Shown here: piece after piece, positions 16,866-49,323 of the stretch | How the letters are laid out: each line of letters opens with the position of its first letter | Position numbering within the stretch: position 1 is the first letter of the stretch | Virus record (IMG/VR): IMGVR_UViG_3300047200_000500 | Coordinates: 64,001-128,000 of that record | DNA length: 64,000 bases | Reading direction: 5' to 3' (one strand) | Origin: a virus | Program-made: the position numbers and the translations under genes | The notes under the pieces: generated by a model | What the model was told of the DNA's origin: nothing | The model's input: the letters and a program-made list of their open reading frames with translations, nothing else | Database searches by the model: none

Positions 16866-16905
16866 CACCTTATCAAATCTAAATAAAGCATCAGGAGATA
16901 TTAAG

Positions 16906-18840
16906 ATGGAACTCATTGATCGTCTCAAAATAATACTTGAAGCACCAGGAGATAATGAAGATATTGATGATGTTATTGATTCAGAGCCAGAAGTTGATGA
17001 AGGCGATACTGATGTCAAAGTTGATGATAATGCCGAGGCTGCAGCTGATGAGGAAAAATCTGAAGTTGAACAATTAATTGATAAAGAAAAAGGCGTAATT
17101 GATTGGACTGGCATACCTAATCCAATGCCGGGTAAAACTCTTTCTGACTTAAAGGGATCTAAGGTTAAAGGCATACCTGCTGTTAAATTGCCATTGGAAA
17201 ATGGTTGGACCAAAGAAGAAGTTATATCAGCACTCAAACCAACTATAATTTATTTTGCTAAGAAATATTCAACTCCAACATTTAATGTTGAGGAAGCTAT
17301 TGCTGAACAGATGACCGGAGTACTTGAAGCTCTTAAAAATGATAAAGGAATTGCACCATTTACTTCACATGTATACCGTTATCTTTCAACATCCGCTCAA
17401 AGAGGTGCTGGTAAGGCTTCTAATATTTCTGGTGTCCCACAAACTAAAGGCGGTAAGTATGATCACTTAGCCGCTTCTAGAGCAGCGGTTAGTGCTGATG
17501 CTCCAATGCCTGGAGATGCCGAAGAAACTTATTCTAGTCAGATCTCTAGCCATTATGATCAAGCTGGTGAATTGGCTAGTAAACAGAGAACAATGACTAA
17601 ATTGATTTCCCATTTATTAAATGCCCCTTCTGTTGGTCTTTCAGAAAAAGAGAAACTTGTTTTAATGGCAACTTATGGTATAGGACAAGATGGTAAAATT
17701 GGCGAACCGAAGACTAGTAAAGAAATAGCTGATGCTTTAGGCGGAGTTTCTGTTGTAAGAATTAGTCAAATTAGAACTGGTGCACTCGCTAAAATTCAAG
17801 AATATGTCCAAGCTCGCAAGTTTAAAGATGAAGGCCAAGCAGCACAATCTCTTGGCATTGAAGAATCTAAACTTATTGCTATTGCTGAAGCTTTTGCAAG
17901 AATTATAAAAGAGACGATTCAACTTGAATATGAAATGTATTCCGAAAGACAAATAATTGAAATGAAGACAGATTATCGTGGAAGAAGCGAATCTGTTAAA
18001 ATTCATGTTAATTCTGATACATATGAAGTTGAAAATGCATTAAATGAAGAGAATGAAAGTATACTTGGACATGTAACTGATGAAATATTAAATGAAGCAG
18101 TTGATCTGGCAAGAGCTAAAACTTCAGGTCAATATTTTGCCGAAATGGTCAACAATGTTATAAGTATGCAGGCACAACCAGTTCTTGCCACTATAAATAA
18201 TACTATTTCTAAAGGTGAAATTCCATTCATTTATGTTAATAAGCCAGGAGTAGAAAGGGCAATGGGTGCCGCTGAGAAAGCAGTATTTGGCAAAAGATTT
18301 AATGGGAAATATTATGGTGGTGGGGCATCAAGGATAAATGCTTGGTATTATCAAAATGATGCTGCTGAACAAGTCAATAAAATGCATGAAATAATGGCAA
18401 ATAAAGGATTTGCAGAGTTCAAGGCCGATAGTTCTGGTAAGACAATGAGTGAAGATATCAACCAGGAAACTTTAAAGCCTGGATCATATTCAACTGAAGT
18501 AAGAGTGCCATATTTGGATGGTAGTGGTAGTACCACATATAATGTTGTTTTTGATATATATGGTCAATTTTTAGAAGAACTTGATATAAAAGCAATAGAT
18601 GATGTTGATACTGGTGAAATGAATATCGATCTTGTTACTGTTAATTTAGATGAAATAGAAAAGAAAGTAAATGAGAAAATAAAGTCTCGTGAAATTAGAT
18701 CTATGTCATATGATAAAGATAGACTTAAGCAACTTCAAGATATGGTTGCAAACGATGAAGAACACCAAGCAAAAATTCATAAATTCGAAAATCAATTTGC
18801 TGATTTACAACCACCAGATAAAGAAGATGGGAAAAGCTGA
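16906..18840 (+). CDS. Multidomain protein containing a sigma70-family domain (regions 2 and 4)
   Basis: AGGAG SD and ATG at 16906. Region 2-like 'IIYFAKKY....FNVEEAIAEQMTGVLEALKND...PFTSHVYRYL'; region 3-like 'VSADAPM'; region 4 HTH 'LSEKEKLVLMATYGI......PKTSKEIADALGGVSVVRISQIRTGALAKIQ'. Confidence 0.8.
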   Translation: MELIDRLKIILEAPGDNEDIDDVIDSEPEVDEGDTDVKVDDNAEAAADEEKSEVEQLIDKEKGVIDWTGIPNPMPGKTLSDLKGSKVKGIPAVKLPLENGWTKEEVISALKPTIIYFAKKYSTPTFNVEEAIAEQMTGVLEALKNDKGIAPFTSHVYRYLSTSAQRGAGKASNISGVPQTKGGKYDHLAASRAAVSADAPMPGDAEETYSSQISSHYDQAGELASKQRTMTKLISHLLNAPSVGLSEKEKLVLMATYGIGQDGKIGEPKTSKEIADALGGVSVVRISQIRTGALAKIQEYVQARKFKDEGQAAQSLGIEESKLIAIAEAFARIIKETIQLEYEMYSERQIIEMKTDYRGRSESVKIHVNSDTYEVENALNEENESILGHVTDEILNEAVDLARAKTSGQYFAEMVNNVISMQAQPVLATINNTISKGEIPFIYVNKPGVERAMGAAEKAVFGKRFNGKYYGGGASRINAWYYQNDAAEQVNKMHEIMANKGFAEFKADSSGKTMSEDINQETLKPGSYSTEVRVPYLDGSGSTTYNVVFDIYGQFLEELDIKAIDDVDTGEMNIDLVTVNLDEIEKKVNEKIKSREIRSMSYDKDRLKQLQDMVANDEEHQAKIHKFENQFADLQPPDKEDGKS

Positions 18841-18941
18841 AAAAGGATGTTAACGGTAAAGTGACTGATGAAGATGGCAAAGGATATGTAAAGGATGAAA
18901 ATTCTTCACATTATAAATTAAAAGTGATGTATTTAATTTAA

Positions 18942-20943: not shown

Positions 20944-23019
20944 ATGACGAATTCGGTGAAAAAAGCTAAGGAAATCATTCCTACGCTTTCAGAAAAATCT
21001 TTACCATCTCTAGCGTTAGAACCTAAGATTAAGCCTAAGAACCATTATTTTGATAATGATTTGGTTCAAGAAATTTTAAAAAGATATGTTGCTCGTGGGT
21101 GCGTTGACATAGAATTACGTGATGAAATAATGCACCATGCTGAAGAATTGATAAGACAAGTAATCAGAGCGCATAATTTTGAACATATTTTTCCAAATAG
21201 AGACAGTTCATCAGCATTAGAATTATTCCAAGTGGCCTATTGTGTATCGTTAGATACCATGTTATTCACTGACAATGGGATAATGAAAATAAATGATATA
21301 ATTAATAACAGTTTTAATAGACAAATACTTTGTAATGGATTAATTGGAGAAATTGATATCATGGTAAATGGAATTAATGGATTATCAAAAGCTAATAAAT
21401 ATTGCTTAAGAAATAATATTAAAACAAAAAAGATTAAAATTAAATATGATTATGAATTGGAATGTACTAATGATCATCCAATTTTAGTTTTAAAACCTGA
21501 TGGGCATAAATGGATAAATGCTGGTGATCTTAAGAAAAATGATTATGTTGGTTTACAATATAATCAAAATATTTGGATTAATAATAATAAAATAGATTTT
21601 AAACCATTAACTAAAGGTGGTACCACTTACATGTGGAATCCACCTTCAGAATGGACTGAAGAATTAGCATATATAGTAGGATTAGTAGTCTCAGAAGGAT
21701 CAGTTGAGGATTATAGAATTGTAATTTATAATGGAGAAGTAAATGAAATATTACAAAATAATAATTGCGGGCTAATTATTAAATATGATGGTAATCTTAC
21801 TAATGCGATAGGATGTATAAGGTTTGCAGAATTTATAAAATGGTTAGGGATTAGCAATAGTGCATTAACAAAAAAAATTCCAGAGCAAATTTTGAAATGT
21901 TCTAAGAATATTATATCATCATTTTTGTCAGGAATGTTTGATGGTGACGGTCATTCTAATAAAAGCAATGGAAGAGTTGGATATACATCATCTTCAAAAA
22001 TTTTAATTGAACAATTAAGAATGTTGATGTTAAACTATGGAATAGTAACCCAAAAAAGTGCAGATAATAGGAAATTCAGTTTGTTTAGAAATAAAAAATG
22101 TGACAAGCATACATCATGGCAAGTATTATTTCCAACAATTGATTCAATGATATTTTATAATGAAATAGGATTTAAAATAAAACGAAAGCAAAATAATAAA
22201 GTGAAATTGTCAGATATTCCATTTAGATATTTATATGGTCACTATAAACAACATACTGGAAATATTCTTAAATATATTAAAAAATTAGATCGTAAATGTT
22301 TAAAACCAAGAGATATAATTACACCTAAAATATTATCAAGATTGTTATTGGTTAAATCAGCTATTAATACTGAATCTTATAAATATTTATCTGAAAGATT
22401 ATCTGAATGTTCTGGTAATAATAAGATAATATGGTTGCCAGTCAAGGAAATAAATGACAGCATATCAGATGTCATTGATATTACAGTTCCACTTGAAAAC
22501 AATTTTGTAGCCAATGGTATAATAACCCATAATTGCCAGATCGAGAAAGTTTTATATAAATATGATCCACAACCAGGATCACCAAAATTATTCAATTTAT
22601 GGAGCCAGGTAAGCAAGACGCGAATTTTGGCATACTTGAAAAAAGAGAAAAGAGACAAAAAGAATGTCGTGAGTTATAAAGATTTCTTAAACAGAAAACA
22701 GAAAATCAAATTAAAAAATTCAACAGATATTGATTTGTGGTTAAAAGAAGCAAGGGAGATGTTAGAATATAATGAAGATTTTTTAAAGATAGTAGATGCA
22801 ATAGAAAAAATTTGGTATGATGATGAAAAATCTCATGATGGACTAATATCAAAAATTGAAAAGACTAGTGGAAAGAACAGGAATATAATAAGCCATTTTT
22901 TCAAAACAATAAGGATAAGAAGAGATGAGTTTACGGTTAATTTACTTGAAGTTAAAGACCCTAAAGATCCTGATGCTAGTGATGTAGAAGATTTCTTTTA
23001 TATTGACCATGATCAATAA
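20944..23019 (+). CDS. gp55: Late sigma factor (T4 gp55-like) interrupted by an intein
   Basis: Exteins 'KNHYFDN', 'ELFQVAY|CQIEKVLYKYDP' and 'KLFNLWSQVSKTRILAYLKKEKR' resemble the gp55 pattern (HYVNN...NFDP...FAYFTQI...RIKKEK). Spliced length is 260 aa. Confidence 0.7.
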   Translation: MTNSVKKAKEIIPTLSEKSLPSLALEPKIKPKNHYFDNDLVQEILKRYVARGCVDIELRDEIMHHAEELIRQVIRAHNFEHIFPNRDSSSALELFQVAYCVSLDTMLFTDNGIMKINDIINNSFNRQILCNGLIGEIDIMVNGINGLSKANKYCLRNNIKTKKIKIKYDYELECTNDHPILVLKPDGHKWINAGDLKKNDYVGLQYNQNIWINNNKIDFKPLTKGGTTYMWNPPSEWTEELAYIVGLVVSEGSVEDYRIVIYNGEVNEILQNNNCGLIIKYDGNLTNAIGCIRFAEFIKWLGISNSALTKKIPEQILKCSKNIISSFLSGMFDGDGHSNKSNGRVGYTSSSKILIEQLRMLMLNYGIVTQKSADNRKFSLFRNKKCDKHTSWQVLFPTIDSMIFYNEIGFKIKRKQNNKVKLSDIPFRYLYGHYKQHTGNILKYIKKLDRKCLKPRDIITPKILSRLLLVKSAINTESYKYLSERLSECSGNNKIIWLPVKEINDSISDVIDITVPLENNFVANGIITHNCQIEKVLYKYDPQPGSPKLFNLWSQVSKTRILAYLKKEKRDKKNVVSYKDFLNRKQKIKLKNSTDIDLWLKEAREMLEYNEDFLKIVDAIEKIWYDDEKSHDGLISKIEKTSGKNRNIISHFFKTIRIRRDEFTVNLLEVKDPKDPDASDVEDFFYIDHDQ
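21241..22533 (+). mobile_element. Intein (431 aa) with LAGLIDADG homing endonuclease
   Basis: Starts 'CVSLDT'; block B 'LECTNDHPIL'; LAGLIDADG motifs 'IVGLVVSEG' and 'LSGMFDGDG'; ends 'VIDITVP..NNFVANGIITHN' followed by Cys+1. Confidence 0.93.
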
Positions 23020-26128: not shown

Positions 26129-26169
26129 TATGAAAACTGTATTTGGTATTATCTAAGTAAATATAAATC

Positions 26170-27905: not shown

Positions 27906-30008
27906 ATGAGCATGAATAAGCAACCGACTCTTGCCACCTCCAAAGTTACGATGGATGCTCGCAAGTTGCTGAGCACTATCAACCAAGGATATGCAGGTCA
28001 GATATCGGTCATGGAGAACCGACTGCAAAAACTTGGACTGGAATTAAACAGAAAATTCCGTTTAGTTTCTCTTGCCAATAATGCATTAATGTTTGAAGAT
28101 GTAAAGTCTAATAATTATTACCGTGCTGATTATAAGATTGCTGAGCATCAAATTACTCTTGAAAATATTAAACAGATTGTTGTTGTTGATGAAAAGAAAC
28201 CAGAAATCTTTAATAAAGCTTGCCGTGAGTTAGTAGAAGCTATTGAAAATGATGATTCTTCAAAGGCTGATAAGATTTTTGGACAGATAGAGAAGGGGTA
28301 TTGCACACCTAATGTTATTCCTGAGAGTGGCATAGTTAAGACTCGTGATGGTGTTGTTCAGCGCATTCATATCAATGAATCTATCATATCAGAATCAATA
28401 TATCCAGTATTAGTGAAGACAATTAAGGAATCAATTACTTCTGCAAAGATGGTCATTAAAGAAGGTGTAATAACCTATAATGACCAGAATGTGAAATTAC
28501 CTGTATCTAAGTTAACTTTACGTCAGGTTAACGCTCGCCACATGAGGAATGTGGCTGAGAGTGCTTATCAGAGTGATAATTTTGGTAAGCTTATCAAGGC
28601 TTGTGCCGCTCACATTTCTAATGCTAATATTCGCGAGGCTATCAAACTGTCTAAGGATTTCTTAACTGAAGAGCAGGAATTCACTCTCCTCAATAAGGAT
28701 GAGTTTGGAACATTAATTGAAAATACTTTATTCTCGAATGGTATCTTTAATCATAAGATAGTAGAGGATACCGCAAACACCCTTTGGGAAACCAATTGTT
28801 TTGTTAATAAAGATGCCATCTTGAAGGAATGGAAGATAGCTGCTGAAGATATTAAGTCAAAGAATTTAACTGAAAATGTTAAGTTACTTGAGGATGTTTC
28901 AAATAATCCAAAGAAGTTCTCTGAAGCTTATGATTCATTTGTTAAATCAGTTCTTGTTGAGGACATGTCATCCAAGGCTGTAAAGGCCCAAGCATACCTC
29001 AATATGCTCAAACTGGTCAAGAATGTTGTTTCTGGATCTGACGCTGACGCTGCAGTACAGGGAGCAGTGGATGATCTTGTAATTCGTCTTGAGAGTGATA
29101 TTAATAATATTGATGATGCAACCCTTTATGAAGTTGAAGATTTACTCGCCACAGTTGGTTCTGATTTAATCACAGACGTTCAGACACTTGGCGATTTCAA
29201 CAAGATACCTGAGCCTCAAGCTGTTGACCAGTTTGGTGCACCTTCTGATATTGAAGGTGAATTTGCTGGTGATATGGGTGAAGACTTTGTTGCCCCATCA
29301 GTTGGCGGTGCAGGCGGAATGGGTGAGGCTGGTGCTGCTGGCGATATGGGTGCTCCTACCGCAGACATGGGCGCTCCGGCCAGTGCAACTCCTGGTGCAG
29401 AAGGTGGCATAGAAGTAGCTCCTGAGGTAGTTCCTGGTGCTGAAGAGGAAGAGGAAGAGCCAGTACTAGATAGTAAGAAAGTTGACGGAAAGGCTATTAG
29501 TGAAAATTCTGATTATAATACTCCCAAAATTGATGAAAATTTAAAAGTCAATGAAAGCTATGGTGAAAGCGATAAGCCATGGGAAAAGAAGGATGATAAG
29601 AAAGTAGAAGACAAAGTGGAAGACAAAAAGGATGATAAGAAAGTAGAAGAATCACTTGTTGCTGTTGCTAATAGTGATGAAAAACTCATTGAAATAGTCA
29701 GCGCTGCAATGAATGCAGATGACAAAACTGATGATGAAGTTAAAAAAGCTGATCCAGCCCCTGCCGCTGATAAACCAGAAGGTGAATTAATTCAAGATTG
29801 CGATGAACCAGTGGTTAAAGAGGACAGCAATATAACTGATCCTGATAGCAAGAACTATGCTGGCCACCAAGATGATAAGAAAGATCATGAAGGCGTGAAG
29901 AGAAATAATCCTCCTAAATTCAGTGATGAAGATTTTAATGGTACCGAAAAAGCTAAAACTGGCAAGGATAAGCCAGAAGCCGGTCTGACAAGCGCTACTA
30001 AGGAATAA
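27906..30008 (+). CDS. Prohead core/internal scaffold protein
   Basis: Between portal and protease; acidic low-complexity C-terminus with many xxE sites. Confidence 0.65.
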   Translation: MSMNKQPTLATSKVTMDARKLLSTINQGYAGQISVMENRLQKLGLELNRKFRLVSLANNALMFEDVKSNNYYRADYKIAEHQITLENIKQIVVVDEKKPEIFNKACRELVEAIENDDSSKADKIFGQIEKGYCTPNVIPESGIVKTRDGVVQRIHINESIISESIYPVLVKTIKESITSAKMVIKEGVITYNDQNVKLPVSKLTLRQVNARHMRNVAESAYQSDNFGKLIKACAAHISNANIREAIKLSKDFLTEEQEFTLLNKDEFGTLIENTLFSNGIFNHKIVEDTANTLWETNCFVNKDAILKEWKIAAEDIKSKNLTENVKLLEDVSNNPKKFSEAYDSFVKSVLVEDMSSKAVKAQAYLNMLKLVKNVVSGSDADAAVQGAVDDLVIRLESDINNIDDATLYEVEDLLATVGSDLITDVQTLGDFNKIPEPQAVDQFGAPSDIEGEFAGDMGEDFVAPSVGGAGGMGEAGAAGDMGAPTADMGAPASATPGAEGGIEVAPEVVPGAEEEEEEPVLDSKKVDGKAISENSDYNTPKIDENLKVNESYGESDKPWEKKDDKKVEDKVEDKKDDKKVEESLVAVANSDEKLIEIVSAAMNADDKTDDEVKKADPAPAADKPEGELIQDCDEPVVKEDSNITDPDSKNYAGHQDDKKDHEGVKRNNPPKFSDEDFNGTEKAKTGKDKPEAGLTSATKE

Positions 30009-30013
30009 GGGTC

Positions 30014-30670
30014 ATGCAGGTCCTATCCAATAGAGTGATTACTAAAAATCAGGTAATCCGGGATTATTACCCTCTCAAGGTAATAAAGCAGGACTCTATA
30101 CTTGCCGAATCGGCAAATGGATCACCAAAGCGTCAGGTTACACGTCTAACCAGTTTGGTTCAAAAAGCTGAAGATCCAAACGAGAATGGTAGAATCTATC
30201 CACTTGAAGTAATGACTGAGAGTGTTAAAGCTATACAGCCAATGTTGAAAGAGCGTTCAATCTTGGGTGAGATGGATCACCCAGATGATGCTAAAATTCA
30301 TACAGAAAATGCTTGCATATTGTTAACTAAGTTATGGATGGAAGGCAAGAATGTTTATGGTCAGTTTGAGATCCTTGAAGGAATGCCTAAGGGGCAGATG
30401 CTCAAGGCTCTAATTGACCAAGATGTAAGAGTCTGCATTAGTAGTCGTGGTGTGGGTGATCTTGAATCGTATCTTAGTGAAGATGGTAATGAGTTTAATA
30501 GAGTTCTTCCAGGATTTAAGTTCGTAACCTTTGATGCTGTTAATGAACCTAGTGTTAATGGTACTAATCTTAGCATAATGGAAAGCAAGATCCGTGTTGC
30601 TCGTAGCAAGTCACGTATTGATCTTGAAAAACAGTTCCTCACTGAGACCAAACTTACTTTCAGAGTTTGA
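30014..30670 (+). CDS. gp21: Prohead protease
   Basis: 'NENGRIYP', 'GEMDHP', 'ISSRGVG' and 'FDAVNEPS' are T4 gp21 catalytic motifs. Confidence 0.95.
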   Translation: MQVLSNRVITKNQVIRDYYPLKVIKQDSILAESANGSPKRQVTRLTSLVQKAEDPNENGRIYPLEVMTESVKAIQPMLKERSILGEMDHPDDAKIHTENACILLTKLWMEGKNVYGQFEILEGMPKGQMLKALIDQDVRVCISSRGVGDLESYLSEDGNEFNRVLPGFKFVTFDAVNEPSVNGTNLSIMESKIRVARSKSRIDLEKQFLTETKLTFRV

Positions 30671-30722: not shown

Positions 30723-31718
30723 ATGGATCGCGCTACAATAATCAAAGCCCTTAAAGAAGAGATTGATGCCGTCGAAAAGGCTGATGGCAAGGGTGTTGCT
30801 AAAAAAGAAGTAAAGGAAGTTAGTGGAGTTAGTGCTGATGGAAAATCAGAAAAAATCAAGCTTAGTGGTGGTGAAACCACAGTTGGTGGTGATGCTGGTG
30901 GCGTGACTAAAGGTGGCAAGCCTGCCGAAGGTTGCTGTGAACCGGCTATTGAAAAGGCTGATGGTAAATCAGTGGCTTCAGCTAAGACAGGCGATGCCAA
31001 AGTTGGTGGCGGAGCAGCTGACGGTAAAGCAGTTTGCACTGCTGATGGTAAATCAGTAGCTACTGCTGATGCCAAGATCAGTCCAGACCTTAAGGGGATG
31101 GACAATGCAGTTGGTGAGAGTATAACCCTCCCTCATGATGTACTGGTCGAGATGAATGGCAAGCAGATGACTCTTAAGGCTGGCACCAAGGTGTGCTTAG
31201 TCAAGGAAGAGGAAGAGTGCGAGAAAAATGATGAGAAAAAGAAAAATGAAGAGCCGCCTGTCGCAGCAGAACCTGGGGCTTCAGTAACTGTTGAAGACAA
31301 TAAAAAGAGTAATAAGGTTGTTAATGAGGAAATTCCTGATTTCCTTAAAGATGAAGGAACTAAAGATGCTGGCGAAGAGGCTGGCGAAGAGGCTGGCGAA
31401 GAGGCTGGCGAAGAGGCTGGCGAAGAGGCTGGCGAGGGCGAAGTAGAATTTGGTGCTGGTGACATGCCAAGTGATGAAGCAGATCTGCCCGCCATAGTTG
31501 AACCGGAGAAGGAAATTGAAGGAAGTGCACTTGATAAGATTGTAGCCTCTCTCGATACCCTGGCTGATAGCTTCCGTGAGTTTGCTGCAGAAGAGAAGAG
31601 CGAACCACAGCATGGTGGTGAGGAAGCTGGTACTGGTGAGAAGGAAGAGAAGGAAAATACTGAGTTTAATACTCAACTTGAGTCATTCAGCAAGAGAAAA
31701 GGTAAACTGATCAAGTAA
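30723..31718 (+). CDS. Acidic prohead core protein with ADGK and EEAG repeats
   Basis: AAGGA SD and ATG at 30723; five ADGK motifs; highly acidic. Confidence 0.7.
   Translation: MDRATIIKALKEEIDAVEKADGKGVAKKEVKEVSGVSADGKSEKIKLSGGETTVGGDAGGVTKGGKPAEGCCEPAIEKADGKSVASAKTGDAKVGGGAADGKAVCTADGKSVATADAKISPDLKGMDNAVGESITLPHDVLVEMNGKQMTLKAGTKVCLVKEEEECEKNDEKKKNEEPPVAAEPGASVTVEDNKKSNKVVNEEIPDFLKDEGTKDAGEEAGEEAGEEAGEEAGEEAGEGEVEFGAGDMPSDEADLPAIVEPEKEIEGSALDKIVASLDTLADSFREFAAEEKSEPQHGGEEAGTGEKEEKENTEFNTQLESFSKRKGKLIK
31368..31436. repeat. In-frame 12-bp tandem repeat GCTGGCGAAGAG x5.7 (AGEE)
   Basis: Five perfect units plus a partial unit. Confidence 0.95.
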
Positions 31719-31798: not shown

Positions 31799-32254
31799 AT
31801 GAAGTTGTCACTGATAAATGAGTCTAATAGAGAAGATAGAGAAATACTATCAAGACAAGCTGAATTTGAAACAGTTCTTTTATATGAGCCAGAATTTGAA
31901 TCAATGGAAAATTATGAAATTTTAGATTATTGCACGAAACAATTTACTACTAATACTCCTCCTGGTATAACACCAATAAATGCCAAAGTAATATGTGCTG
32001 ATACTAAAAATGTGGATGATGATAGATTATTTAAAGCTGTTTTTGTAACTTCAATTGAAGATTTCATAAGAAATTCGATAGAGTATGACAATGATGTGTA
32101 TGATATATTAGATGGTATTAAGGTTGCCACCCATGATAAATCAATTATGGCGGCAGCCAATAGATTTATGAGAGACAAATCAAATAATTTTAAAGTAGCA
32201 AAAATTGGTGGTGGAAATGAAATATCAGATATTGATGTTACTCAACAATTTTAG
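31799..32254 (+). CDS. Hypothetical protein with capsid-targeting-like N-terminus (MKLSLINE|S)
   Basis: 151 aa, late-type motif 12 nt upstream. Confidence 0.6.
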   Translation: MKLSLINESNREDREILSRQAEFETVLLYEPEFESMENYEILDYCTKQFTTNTPPGITPINAKVICADTKNVDDDRLFKAVFVTSIEDFIRNSIEYDNDVYDILDGIKVATHDKSIMAAANRFMRDKSNNFKVAKIGGGNEISDIDVTQQF

Positions 32255-32255
32255 T

Positions 32256-32414
32256 ATGAAACTTTCATCAATTAATGATAGGGCACCAAAAGATAAGAAG
32301 GTTGTAGATCTTAGGAGTAAACCAGAAGAAGATAAAGTAATAGATGCCAGAACACCATCAAAGAAAAATGATGGTTTAGGTAAAGGATGGAGAACGTTGC
32401 GTCAAGATGCGTAA
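32256..32414 (+). CDS. Small protein (MKLSSIND...)
   Basis: ATG 1 nt after the upstream stop; N-terminus resembles that of 31799. Confidence 0.5.
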   Translation: MKLSSINDRAPKDKKVVDLRSKPEEDKVIDARTPSKKNDGLGKGWRTLRQDA

Positions 32415-33043
32415 TCTGTCTGATATTTGTATTGTTTAAAATAATGCTCAACAAATAATTTTTTGTCGTCGTTTTCTTCTAAATCTATAAGTATCTTATT
32501 ATTAATGAAGAAATTAAATTTATGTATGCCTAAATAATAGTTTTCTTCAAATCTTATATTGTTATTGGTCAATTTCTTTTTTAAATCGTTATGATCACGA
32601 GTTCCAAATTTCAAGTTCATCTCCTTTTTGTCCTTAGCTGTTAATACTTTAATTCTATAATCATCATCTAGCCATTTATTTTTTATCTTATTTGATATGT
32701 CTTCCCTATAATTTTTGGACTTCCATAATTTTTTAACTCTGTTACTATTATCTGATTTATTTTTGGAATCTTGGTAAAATTTCCTCAATGATTTACTTAT
32801 TTTATCTGCATTTTTAGCATTGTTGATAGTTGCTATCATACTCATTTTGGATTTTACAACGCTACTAGCTAATTTCTCCAGTGATCTTTCTTTAGATTCA
32901 TGTTTAAATTTTTTAGATTGGGTGGTTTTTTTGATTTTGCAATTTCTGCATATGAATTTTTTGGGGTCGTTTCTTGATAACCATCTGTTTAGAAATTCAT
33001 ATTCTGTTTGGCATTCTTTACATGTGGCTTTAATTTTGTTCAT
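32402..33043 (-). CDS. Degenerate free-standing endonuclease-like protein (Zn finger, NUMOD-like helical repeats, eroded PD-(D/E)XK/DUF559-like end)
   Basis: CKEC...CRNC; 'KISKSLR..', 'REDISNKIK.KW' repeats; 'FNFFINNKILIDLE' lacks the usual D...E..G..H residues. Confidence 0.5.
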   Translation of the reverse strand: MNKIKATCKECQTEYEFLNRWLSRNDPKKFICRNCKIKKTTQSKKFKHESKERSLEKLASSVVKSKMSMIATINNAKNADKISKSLRKFYQDSKNKSDNSNRVKKLWKSKNYREDISNKIKNKWLDDDYRIKVLTAKDKKEMNLKFGTRDHNDLKKKLTNNNIRFEENYYLGIHKFNFFINNKILIDLEENDDKKLFVEHYFKQYKYQTDYAS

Positions 33044-33927: not shown

Positions 33928-35422
33928 GTGAACAAGCGTCAAGAAGTCCTCTTAACTGAGGCTAAGAAGAACGAACAGGTCCACAAGTGGGCCAAAGTTC
34001 TCAACAAAATGCCCGAAGTCAAGTCCCGCAGCAAAATGGGACTCATGGCTTCGATCATGGAAAACCAGTACAACCACATGAAGGGCGGCGGCGGAAGCCG
34101 TATCCTTTTTGAGGATGCTACCACCACCAACAACATCGCGGACTTCACCCGCTTTGCCCTCCCCCTCCTGCGCAAGAGCTACCCCAAGCTCATCGCTGAC
34201 GGCCTCGTGGGCGTGCAGCCCATGTCGCAGCCCGCTTCGCTGATCTTCTACGTCCGCTATCGGTATGGCATCAGCAAGGGCCAGACTGTTGCTGGTACGC
34301 AGATCATGCGTCAGAACACCTCGCAGGCTTACGCTCGTCAGAATGGCTGGGCGCTTGATCCTTACTACAGCTCGCAGACTGTTAAGGACGAGAACCTCAC
34401 CATCGCTGGTGGCGTGATCAGCGGTCAACTGGCCCAGAAGCCTGTTCTGGCTGGTACCGTGGTGGTCAACGTCTACGCAGCTGACACCAACTCGTGCGAC
34501 ACCCCCACCCCGCTGCTCCAGGTTAGCTTCGACAGCAAGGGCGCACCCGACAACGTTCTTATTGGCAACGTGACTGGTCTGACGATCGACACCTCGACAA
34601 GTGGTGCTACGTCCTTCAACCACAACACTGGCACTGTGAACATCACCGTTTCAAGCGGTACGTTCCCAGTTGGTGCCTTTGCGACTGTCGATTACGAGTT
34701 CGACCTTGAGAACAACCCCTTCCAGCCGGAAGTGACTCTCTCGATCGACAGCGACTCGGTTTCGGCCATCACCCGCAAGCTGAAGACCTCGTGGAGCCTT
34801 GAGGCTGCTCAGGATCTCCGTGCACAACATGGACGCTGAGGCCACCCTGACCGACCTGATGGGTGATGAGATCGTCGCTGAGATTGATCGTGAGATCATC
34901 AACGACCTGATCATCGCTTCCAGCATCCGCGCCACCCACAACTTTGCCACCGCAGCCGGTGCTTCGGTCAACTTCATTGACCGTAACATCGCCCTGTTGT
35001 ACAAGACCCTGGAAGTGGCGAACGTCATCCATCGTACCACACTCCGTGGTCCGGCCAACTGGATGGTGACTTCGGCTGATATCTCAAGCAAGTTTGAGCA
35101 GCTGAACGACTTCCGTGGTAGCGACGTGCTGGCCACCGATGGAATCGACATTGGCATCACCAATGCTGGAACCATTCAGGGCAAGCTGAAGCTCTACAAG
35201 GATCCTCTCTTCCCCAACTGCAAGATCCTGATGGGCTTCAAGGGTAACAGCGCACTGGATGCGGGTTACTTCTACGCCCCCTATATCCCGCTGCTCAGCA
35301 CCCCGACTGTGCTTGATCCAAACAGCTATACCCCTAGTAAAGGCGTGATGACCAGATACGGGAAAAAGCTGATAGAAGATGGTGGGTTGTTCTATGGAAC
35401 TATTAACGTCAGCAACCTGTAA
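33928..35422 (+). CDS. gp23: Major capsid protein (T4 gp23 family), split by a frameshift at about 34819
   Basis: 'GVQPMSQPASLIFYVRYRY' and 'RKLKTSWSLEAAQDL' in frame 1; 'DAEATL...EIVAEIDREII', 'RGPANWMVTS', 'YFYAPYIPL' and 'GVMTRYG' in frame 2. Confidence 0.95.
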
Positions 35423-35596: not shown

Positions 35597-37321
35597 ATGA
35601 AGTATTTTTTTGAAGAAGTATCCAAATTGTATGAGCAAGGAAAATCGCAAAAACAGATATCTGATGAATTAGGTTGTGGTCTTAATACTGTTCGTAGAAG
35701 AATGAAAGAATTAAAATTGGGTGGTAAATCAAAAGGGATAAGAAATTATCAGATTAATGAATCTGTTTTTGATAATATTAATACAGAAGAAAAAGCTTAT
35801 TGGCTTGGATTTTTATTGGCTGATGGTTGTATTGCCAAGTCTGCAAAAACAAGAAGAGCAATAAAAGTATCAATACAAATAAGAGATAAAGAACATTTAC
35901 TAAGATTAGCTAAATTTTTTAATTTTAATGGTAAGTATATTTTCGATAAGAGAAATAATCATGAAAGAATTGGATTTGTTTTTAATTCTGTTAGGTTATG
36001 CAATAAATTAATAGAATATGGATGGCTTGAGTTCAAAGAAAATGGCGATACTAAAATATTAAATATTAACGAAAATTTATTTAGTCATTTGTTCCGTGGA
36101 TATTTTGATGGTGATGGATGTATTTCAAATTGGATTAATAAAAAGAAAACATGGTATATCCATATAGTATCAAATAATCGTAAGCCACTTGAATATTTTA
36201 ATTCAAAAGTTCCAGTAAGTTCAGTAGTTAAAGATAGGATTAATAAAAAATCTGGCAATAAAACATATACGATAAAATGGAGTGGGCTAAACAATGTTAG
36301 ATCAATGATTGGTTATATTTATGATAATAGTAATATTTATTTAAAGAGAAAATTTATAAGATGTTCCAATATTGATAATGATTTATTTGTGTTTAGATCA
36401 ATTCATTCGTTTAGTTTTAATGGAATTAAAAGAACCAATGATATAGATAAAATAGTTTGTGAAAGATTAATAGAATCATTTTCTAATATTTTAATTGATT
36501 ATGGTTGGTCGAATCCACAATTTGATTATGAATATGATATCAATGAATTAAAAAAATTTGATATTAATAAATGTATATGTGAAAATTCATTAATAACTGT
36601 TAATGGTAAAACTCCTGGAAATGATACAATTTTACATTTCCAATCTGATATTTGGAAAATAAGTCAAAATTCAAAACCATCAATATATGAATTGTCAAAT
36701 CATAAAAATATTGTAATTAAGGCTATTAATCAATTTTTTAAACAAGACAATAGTTCCTTATCATCAACTAGACTTATTAGAGAATTACAATTTGCTGGAT
36801 TTACAAAAGCGTCAATCTTGTCTGTTCCAGTAATCATGGCAGCAATTAAAAAATTCAATTTGTCTGGTAGTTGGTTTGATCCGTGTGCTGGATGGGGAAA
36901 TAGATTATTAGCTGCTCATATTCTGAAGATTGATTACAATTGTACTGATCCAGGAATTTGTTATGAAGGATTAAAAGAATTATCTTCTAATATAAAATCA
37001 ACTGCAACTGTTCAAAACAAAAAATGGCAAGATGCTGAATGGATTAATTGTGGATTTGTATTAACATCACCTCCTTTTTGGAATAAAGAAAATTATTTAG
37101 ATAATGTTGATTACGGAACATATGATAAATGGTGTGGTGAATTTTTATTTCCATTAATAGAGAAATCTAAACAATATTCACAAAATATTGTTTTTCATGT
37201 TGATAAAAGAATGATTAGCAGTATATCTGAAAAGTATAATACTGAGATTGTTCCACTGACTTCCTCAAATAGACATAAAATGCCAACTGAATATTTTATA
37301 AAAATTAATGAATGTATTTAA
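35597..37321 (+). CDS. HTH + LAGLIDADG homing endonuclease fused to an amino-DNA-methyltransferase-like domain
   Basis: 'AYWLGFLLADGCI' and 'HLFRGYFDGDGCI'; C-terminal 'FDPCAGWGNRL' (SAM-binding) and 'TSPPFWNKENY' (catalytic motif). Confidence 0.8.
   Translation: MKYFFEEVSKLYEQGKSQKQISDELGCGLNTVRRRMKELKLGGKSKGIRNYQINESVFDNINTEEKAYWLGFLLADGCIAKSAKTRRAIKVSIQIRDKEHLLRLAKFFNFNGKYIFDKRNNHERIGFVFNSVRLCNKLIEYGWLEFKENGDTKILNINENLFSHLFRGYFDGDGCISNWINKKKTWYIHIVSNNRKPLEYFNSKVPVSSVVKDRINKKSGNKTYTIKWSGLNNVRSMIGYIYDNSNIYLKRKFIRCSNIDNDLFVFRSIHSFSFNGIKRTNDIDKIVCERLIESFSNILIDYGWSNPQFDYEYDINELKKFDINKCICENSLITVNGKTPGNDTILHFQSDIWKISQNSKPSIYELSNHKNIVIKAINQFFKQDNSSLSSTRLIRELQFAGFTKASILSVPVIMAAIKKFNLSGSWFDPCAGWGNRLLAAHILKIDYNCTDPGICYEGLKELSSNIKSTATVQNKKWQDAEWINCGFVLTSPPFWNKENYLDNVDYGTYDKWCGEFLFPLIEKSKQYSQNIVFHVDKRMISSISEKYNTEIVPLTSSNRHKMPTEYFIKINECI
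37313..37321 (+). promoter_or_regulatory. Representative second motif TGTATTTAA
   Basis: Identical at 18928 and 41149; variants at 2209, 14092, 39014, 57315 and 33073-33079 (minus strand). Confidence 0.45.
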
Positions 37322-48966: not shown

Positions 48967-49323
48967 ATGAAACTATCTACAATAAATGAATCAACAGATA
49001 TAACTGGTAAATTAGACCCGTTAATATCCAAGTATGACGAATTGAGAATTAAAGCTACTGATGAAATGGCAGATCTTCATTATGAATTAATTGTTGATAA
49101 TCTTAGAGGCATTAATACTATTGAGGGATTAAAAAAGTTTTTAAAAACGATACACAATAGTTTGAATAATGAATTGAATGAACTTAATAAAATTAGATCA
49201 ATGATTAAACCAAAAGATACTTTCGAATTTAGTGCGTTTGAAAGTAGGATGAACTCTTATAATAGAGCTATCACCACATATGAAGATATTATTAATTTTG
49301 GAAAGAGTGTTAAATTTTGGTGA
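48967..49323 (+). CDS. Hypothetical protein with capsid-targeting-like N-terminus (MKLSTINE|S)
   Basis: 118 aa, helical. Confidence 0.6.
   Translation: MKLSTINESTDITGKLDPLISKYDELRIKATDEMADLHYELIVDNLRGINTIEGLKKFLKTIHNSLNNELNELNKIRSMIKPKDTFEFSAFESRMNSYNRAITTYEDIINFGKSVKFW

Follow-up and report, generated by a model that had tools for sequence, protein, structure and literature searches.

A sigma-70-family protein with a T4-like leader as a candidate head-packaged transcription factor of an uncultured phage

Introduction

Phages are known to start infection either from promoters that are read with host sigma factors or with an injected whole RNA polymerase, as in N4, phiKZ and the crAss-like phages. 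Whether a sigma factor alone might be delivered instead is the question raised by an open reading frame (ORF) at positions 16906-18840 of a 64,000-nucleotide stretch of viral DNA (the window), which comprises bases 64001-128000 of the 169.6-kb IMG/VR virus record IMGVR_UViG_3300047200_000500 (estimated completeness of the record 46%). The product of this ORF, named P0001 here, combines a sigma-70-family core with an N-terminal segment resembling the leaders of T4 internal head proteins. The T4-like source phage is uncultured and was found in the public runs X1-X3 of freshwater-sediment metagenomes; none of the runs listed as holding its sequence is an RNA run.

A preliminary description of the locus, made from the letters alone, had proposed that P0001 is made late, loaded into the head, trimmed and injected. 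According to the analysis described here, the chances that P0001 is a head-packaged, leader-cleaved sigma factor delivered with the DNA are about even. In the papers searched, jumbo-phage reviews included, a packaged sigma factor was not found to be described.

For the conservation of the leader, an alignment of 12 close homologues was used, and a separate family profile was built from 30 members. Gene order was compared between the window and five related contigs (L004 and L019-L022). Two small paralogous sigma factors are referred to as P0029 and P0110, and putative cleavage positions are marked by a slash.

Results and Discussion

The sigma core of P0001

The ORF is real; an AGGAG Shine-Dalgarno sequence is located 9 nucleotides before the ATG and the same start methionine is used in close homologues. 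Searches of 50,697 phage records on the DNA level and with tblastn gave no match to P0001, neither to the whole protein nor to amino acids (aa) 60-320. The whole protein had no hits in PHROGs; the core alone matched phrog_351, annotated as 'RNA polymerase sigma factor', with an E value of 7e-7.

The sigma-70 domain that had been placed at 17215-17805 (aa 104-300) was recovered by Pfam, by the family profile against PDB and by Foldseek in agreement. Sigma70_r4 (PF04545) scored 29 bits at aa 244-298, above its cut-off of 24.1; in the genome scan the score was 33 bits. The signal for Sigma70_r2 (PF04542) is weak on the single sequence (12.6 bits, under the cut-off of 24), and TIGR02937 aligns over aa 104-300 with 37.7 bits, under its cut-off of 42.9; by the latter score P0001 is a divergent member of the sigma-70 family. 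The 30-member profile matched SigB, SigA and RpoD over regions 2, 3.2 and 4 with E values of 1e-18 to 1e-14, and the range over the solved structures including RpoS is 1e-18 to 1e-12. Searching with the AlphaFold model of P0001 (predicted local distance difference test, pLDDT, 73.7), Foldseek found sigma chains with a probability of 1.0. Profile search and predicted structure thus both recover the sigma-70 fold, and the core of P0001 is a genuine sigma-70-family domain with regions 2, 3.2 and 4 at about aa 104-303. Regions 3.0 and 3.1 are missing.

In the segment preceding region 2 (aa 64-103), D66, W67, T68, G76, K77, P96, L97, G100 and W101 are invariant, and aa 88-186 is the part of P0001 that distant homologues have in common. 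The motif VSADAPMPGD in the region 3.2-like linker lines up with the sigma-finger motif. The protein had been described as acidic, which holds for the overall isoelectric point (pI 4.8) but not for the sigma core, for which a pI of 8.8 was calculated (aa 64-320).

A T4-like leader and its protease sites

T4 leaders are capsid-targeting sequences that are removed by the prohead protease gp21 (PMC9026906). As read from the T4 record, IPII and IPIII start with MKTYQEFIAE/A and gp22 with MLKEQLIAE/A, and gp67 has a helix, FAE/A and a long acidic run. The N-terminus of P0001 follows the pattern M-[ED]-[LFY]-I-x-[RK]-L-[KR]-x-I-L-E/A-P, which is the best-conserved part of its first 60 residues; a helix is predicted for aa 2-11, followed by disorder. 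With I10-L11-E12/A13, P0001 carries a candidate propeptide site of the kind found in T4-type internal head proteins. Glu12 does not vary among the 12 close homologues, and no less than 90% of the 30 family members retain it. As proposed in the preliminary description, the N-terminus looks like a capsid-targeting leader of T4. Many distant family members likewise start with an amphipathic helix ending in [LIVF]-x-E.

All further xxE sites that had been listed are present as well, which gives E12, E320, E328, E336, E381 and E397. Only E12, E320 and E381 are invariant in the 12 homologues; site 328 is kept in just 4 of them, and sites 328, 336 and 397 lie within confidently predicted helices. The suggested trimming to a free sigma factor of the size of FliA or an extracytoplasmic function (ECF) sigma is not supported; it would depend on one invariant residue, E320, next to a linker that is predicted with low confidence (aa 304-317). 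G317, E320 and S321 are invariant or almost so in the 12-homologue alignment, and a cut at the LG[IL]EE/S site after region 4 is our conjecture. A complex prediction of the leader (aa 1-45) with the scaffold-like protein of the window gave a score of 0.00 in a run without controls and weighs neither way.

Small sigma factors with a leader shared by unrelated proteins

P0029 (227 aa, in L002) contains both Pfam sigma regions, is 36% identical to P0001 in the core and starts with MKLSLINE/S. P0110 (245 aa), with 57% identity to P0029, starts with the leader MKIS...FINE/G. The leader of these small sigma factors, MK[LI]S..INE/[SG], also stands on at least four further families of unrelated proteins, with lengths of 151, 118, 128 and 164 aa. 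Two of them are encoded in the window (Table 1); a 117-aa orthologue of the 118-aa protein is encoded two genes downstream of P0029 in L002, and the 128-aa protein is present in three IMG/VR contigs. Furthermore, the variant MKLSSIND occurs at an internal methionine of a small ORF at 32217-32414. Synonymous sites, codons and the upstream DNA differ among the MKLS leaders, which indicates that selection acts on the peptide.

In L026, the gene of P0110 has the scaffold gene on one side and the gp23 (major capsid) gene on the other. Elsewhere, this slot holds the 151-aa MKLS protein (window) or a 164-aa MKLSLINE protein (L027), or is empty (L028). Such changing occupants resemble the internal-protein genes of T4-type phages, which are variable in a similar way. 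In this phage clade, a sigma factor would then be a cargo of the leader system, and the leader of P0001 appears to be of the same design. Among the observations in favour of packaging, the leader of the small sigma factors and the slot of P0110 are the strongest.

Genomic position

The order of genes is fixed in all five related contigs: sheath, tube, hub, three small genes, the sigma gene, helicase, the intein-host gene, two genes, TerL (terminase), portal, a 700-aa protein and protease. The assignment to a morphogenesis cluster stands insofar as the P0001 gene has tail genes on one side and head genes on the other; it does not hold for the gene next to it, which is the helicase gene. Across the contigs, the sigma factor is 58-72% identical, as compared to 73-88% for most flanking virion genes. 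This suggests that the P0001 gene evolves faster than most of its flanking virion genes, which was counted for packaging.

The gp21 gene expected at 30014 was confirmed by PHROGs and by Pfam matches of the orthologues. The sites described for the capsid protein are also present, with LLTE/A near the N-terminus and ILFE/D in the position of FLTE/A, the maturation cleavage site of T4 gp23. The scaffold-like protein encoded behind the protease had no family hits. The coordinates of all features are listed in Table 1.

Table 1. Features of the P0001 gene and of related genes in the window.
Feature	Position	Strand	Description and evidence
Upstream of P0001	16879-16897	+	CTAAATAA at 16879-16886, TAAATA at 16880-16885, AGGAG ribosome-binding site at 16893-16897
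P0001, whole gene	16906-18840	+	644 aa; leader, acidic linker, sigma core, three C-terminal modules
Leader, aa 1-12	16906-16941	+	Amphipathic helix ending I-L-E/A-P; candidate capsid-targeting propeptide with gp21-type site
Acidic linker, aa 13-63	16942-17094	+	43% D+E; pLDDT <50 over aa 12-63; poorly conserved
Pre-region-2 segment, aa 64-103	17095-17214	+	DWTGIP..PGKTL..DLK / PLENGWT, strongly conserved; region-1.2-like position
Sigma region 2, aa 104-180	17215-17445	+	Helices for core binding and -10 recognition; Pfam, TIGR02937, profile, Foldseek
Region 3.2-like linker, aa 181-222	17446-17571	+	Alignment to SigB/SigA; low pLDDT at 195-219
Sigma region 4 (helix-turn-helix), aa 223-303	17572-17814	+	PF04545 above cut-off, profile, AlphaFold
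Candidate second cleavage site LG[IL]EE/S, aa 317-321	17854-17868	+	Just past region 4, at the end of the weak linker
C-terminal domain 1, aa 318-437	17857-18216	+	Helical hairpin and beta meander, pLDDT >90
Variable C-terminal modules, aa 438-644	18217-18837	+	Ferredoxin/ACT-like 438-505; beta domain 526-566; helices 581-630
Prohead protease, T4 gp21-type (S77)	30014-30670	+	phrog_207, E 5e-43; orthologues PF03420 (Peptidase_S77)
Acidic scaffold-like protein	30723-31718	+	331 aa, pI 4.5; position after protease and composition
151-aa protein, leader MKLSLINE/S	31799-32254	+	Scaffold-capsid slot of the window
Major capsid protein (gp23-like)	33928-35422	+	LLTE/A and ILFE/D sites; gene interrupted in the window by a gap of 5 nucleotides
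118-aa protein, leader MKLSTINE/S	48967-49323	+	Orthologue near P0029 in L002

The C-terminal part of P0001

C-terminal domain 1 is kept in most of the closer homologues (E <1e-30). A Foldseek search of the C-terminal domains against PDB gave nothing significant, and neither BFVD nor the ESM Atlas features yielded anything. With VIA-align, Z scores of at most 7.3 were obtained, which is the range of unrelated folds; a hint of an ACT/ferredoxin-like domain at aa 438-505 (Z about 7) has to be read within this range.

Proposed role and alternative explanations

P0001 would most likely be made along with the virion proteins and loaded into the prohead, with the amphipathic helix of aa 1-12 directing it to the scaffolding core. 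The gp21-type protease would cleave behind Glu12, as with the T4 internal proteins, gp22 and gp67, and the mature protein would be kept in the DNA-filled head and ejected along with the genome. In the host cell, regions 2 and 4 would bind the core RNA polymerase, which would thereby be led to phage promoters ahead of all phage protein synthesis. A second cut behind E320 may release a sigma factor of about 33 kDa from the C-terminal modules. We infer packaging, cleavage, ejection and activity on the host polymerase from the sequence comparisons given above. In an extension to the whole clade, two sigma lineages, a universal one of the P0001 type (540-780 aa) and an accessory one of 227-245 aa, would be packaged and injected via cleavable leaders before phage translation; the probability of this extension is put slightly short of even.

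Several observations weigh against packaging. The neighbours of the P0001 gene are the helicase gene and the intein-bearing gene, not head genes. The late-type motif reported upstream amounts to CTAAATAA only, and the AT-rich genome contains 404 copies of TAAATA; the stricter motif of structural genes, GTAAATAT, is not present upstream of P0001, and the late-type motif is absent from the orthologue in L004. The picture of a protease-site-studded polyprotein was not borne out either, since 13 [LI]xE were counted as compared to 8.9±2.6 in shuffled sequences (p≈0.09). T4 internal proteins are basic, whereas P0001 is acidic. In leader searches, the leader MELIDRLKIILE/A of P0001 was found on sigma orthologues alone, whereas the leader of P0029 and P0110 stands on unrelated families; being private, the former could be intrinsic to the sigma family rather than a transferable tag. 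The acidic N-terminus of P0001, with one predicted helix and 50 disordered residues, could also be an analogue of sigma region 1.1; the family profile gave no match specific to region 1.1 in PDB. Finally, the genes of distant family members that start with a comparable helix are found amid non-structural genes, and the cultured cyanophage relatives are leaderless sigma factors that are encoded amid small hypothetical genes, off the structural genes.

The last four points fit with P0001 being an ordinary intracellular phage sigma factor, which would be made during infection, stay in the cell and redirect the polymerase of the host to middle or late promoters of the phage. This main rival explanation is less likely than packaging, but quite possible. 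The N-terminal helix and the acidic stretch would then be a region-1.1-like autoinhibitory or DNA-mimic element, and the C-terminal domains would tether P0001 to the replication or packaging machinery, comparable to T4 gp55 with clamp and terminase; an interaction of gp55 with the terminase is cited in PMC9026906. The completeness of the sigma core agrees with such a role, as does the adjacent helicase gene with its replication-class upstream motif, and phage sigma factors are common in large myoviruses without an own polymerase (PMC7824862; PMC13282480). An intracellular role does not, however, explain why divergent homologues all end the helix with an invariant glutamate, why the leader of the small paralogue is common to unrelated proteins and why a small sigma gene occupies the scaffold-capsid slot. 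Moreover, the intracellular role could fall to another sigma-like gene of the phage, which encodes a leaderless protein of 271 aa (Sigma70_r4, 36-39 bits).

The evidence from the leader and the head module would apply equally to a packaged protein that is not an initiation factor, i.e., a core or scaffold element, a DNA-binding protein or an injected decoy sequestering host core polymerase or host regulators instead of directing transcription. Such a function appears improbable. It could account for the large C-terminal part without a known fold and for the residues that appear to be changed at the sigma-70 melting and -10 positions (H155, R158 and Y159), whose Escherichia coli counterparts would be Y430, W433 and W434 in our own alignment. 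The Trp dyad is, however, missing in alternative sigma factors as well, regions 2.2, 3.2 and 4 can be aligned well to functional sigma factors, and a decoy would need no conserved helix-turn-helix in region 4.

P0001 was also considered as a late sigma factor of the gp55 type and rejected, as it has no BLAST similarity to gp55 and contains regions 3.2 and 4. The architecture of gp55 is restricted to region 2, without regions 3.2 and 4. With T4 gp55 as a query, nothing was found in the phage genome, which possibly encodes a gp55-type factor nonetheless.

Promoter motifs and further sigma-like genes

Genome-wide, two classes of motifs could be identified at a fixed distance of 11-16 nucleotides ahead of start codons, a spacing that points to promoters of leaderless or near-leaderless mRNAs. 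The GTAAATAT motif is found on structural genes (portal, tube-like and tape-measure-like; e.g., at 26157, 53578 and 47018), and the motif (AA)TGTATTT[AT]A precedes genes of the replication type as well as the helicase gene beside the sigma gene (e.g., at 18928, 41149 and 57316). The latter resembles the promoter tAATGTATAtA of the phiEco32 sigma factor gp36 (PMC4281155); by BLAST, gp36 has no similarity to P0001 or to the 271-aa sigma-like protein, and none of the sigma factors could be assigned to this motif. We speculate that both motif classes are the natural targets of P0001 if it is injected. An injected sigma factor may be linked to phage-specific promoters of the AATGTATTTAA type or to an unusual DNA chemistry, given a PurZ-like gene.

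This gene (L023; G000:C1:7249-8475, minus strand) encodes an adenylosuccinate-synthase-like protein with PurZ as its best NCBIfam match; the score of 133 bits falls short of the cut-off of 300 and is level with that of archaeal-type PurA. This phage may have a diaminopurine (Z) genome.

The 271-aa sigma-like gene is located outside the window (L024; G000:C1:150646-151461). Of the sigma regions, its product contains region 4 only, together with a zinc-ribbon-like N-terminal part, and it matches phrog_351 with an E value of 1e-13.

Other observations

The intein-bearing ORF near the sigma gene (20944-23019, plus strand, 691 aa) contains a LAGLIDADG intein (Intein_splicing 57.8 bits, LAGLIDADG_3 49.6 bits). 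Its orthologue in L004 is intein-free with 251 aa and 70-77% identical on each side of the insertion. For this 251-aa host protein, BLAST detected no gp55 similarity and the PDB search gave nothing informative.

Between portal and protease, a conserved acidic protein of 700 aa without a family hit is encoded at 27906-30008 on the plus strand. Read from the methionine that is used by the orthologue in L026, it starts with MDARKLLSTINQG, and the orthologue in L029 has TINES; both are similar to the MKLS..INES leader, and this large protein may belong to the interior of the head.

The capsid gene of the window contains a frameshift at 34816. A Logan contig of run X1 has five more letters (TCAAG) behind this position, by which the frame would be restored, and the capsid genes of L026 and L027 are unsplit with 471-472 aa, so that the split is probably an assembly or strain variant and not a sign of a broken gene. 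The stretch of the capsid gene is unusually GC-rich (0.48 as compared to about 0.32). It is flanked on one side by a Cys-rich, endonuclease-like gene of 213 aa (32402-33043, minus strand) and on the other by a gene of 574 aa with matches to endonuclease and HNH-endonuclease PHROGs (35597-37321, plus strand). In L026, a DUF723 gene directly follows the protease gene. Mobile endonucleases seem to be frequent in this head module.

Significance and comparison with known systems

If packaging of P0001 is true, the injection of a specificity subunit alone would be a third and cheaper route to early transcription. Early transcription would be free of the availability of host sigma factors and possibly of anti-phage measures acting at early promoters. 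The cargo range of T4-type capsid targeting would be widened to a transcription initiation factor, and the leaders MELIDRLKIILE/A and MKLSLINE/S could be used as candidate targeting tags.

The closest parallel is given by the T4 internal proteins IPI-III and Alt, which, like P0001, have a short N-terminal leader ending in [LI]-x-E/A or S and are accompanied by a genome-encoded S77 protease. The MKLS group likewise places one leader on unrelated proteins encoded in or beside the head module, and Alt reprograms the host RNA polymerase on entry, as is proposed for P0001. The T4 cargo differs in being an ADP-ribosyltransferase or an anti-restriction protein, whereas here it is a sigma factor that is known from genes alone, and the leader of P0001 is private to its own family. 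The succession of a helix, L/A-x-E/A and a long acidic run in T4 gp67 corresponds to aa 1-63 of P0001. However, gp67 is a core protein of 80 aa with no further domain, and the likeness is one of layout with no homology demonstrated.

In virion RNA polymerases (vRNAP), i.e., N4 vRNAP, the multisubunit vRNAP of phiKZ and AR9 and those of crAss-like phages, transcription machinery is delivered with the genome, as proposed here. These phages inject a complete polymerase, whereas P0001 would be only the specificity subunit for a host core, and there is no homology. The sigma-70-family fold is common to P0001 and the phage sigma factors that are made after infection, such as T4 gp55, SPO1 gp28, phiEco32 gp36 and that of the cyanophage S-N03, all of which, P0001 included, presumably bind the host core polymerase. 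T4 gp55 and phiEco32 gp36 have no BLAST similarity here, while cyanophage sigma factors are detectable relatives of the small paralogue. The sigma factor of phiEco32 and SU10 is encoded by a middle gene and that of S-N03 amid small hypothetical genes, the latter without a cleavable leader as proposed for P0001 and its small paralogues.

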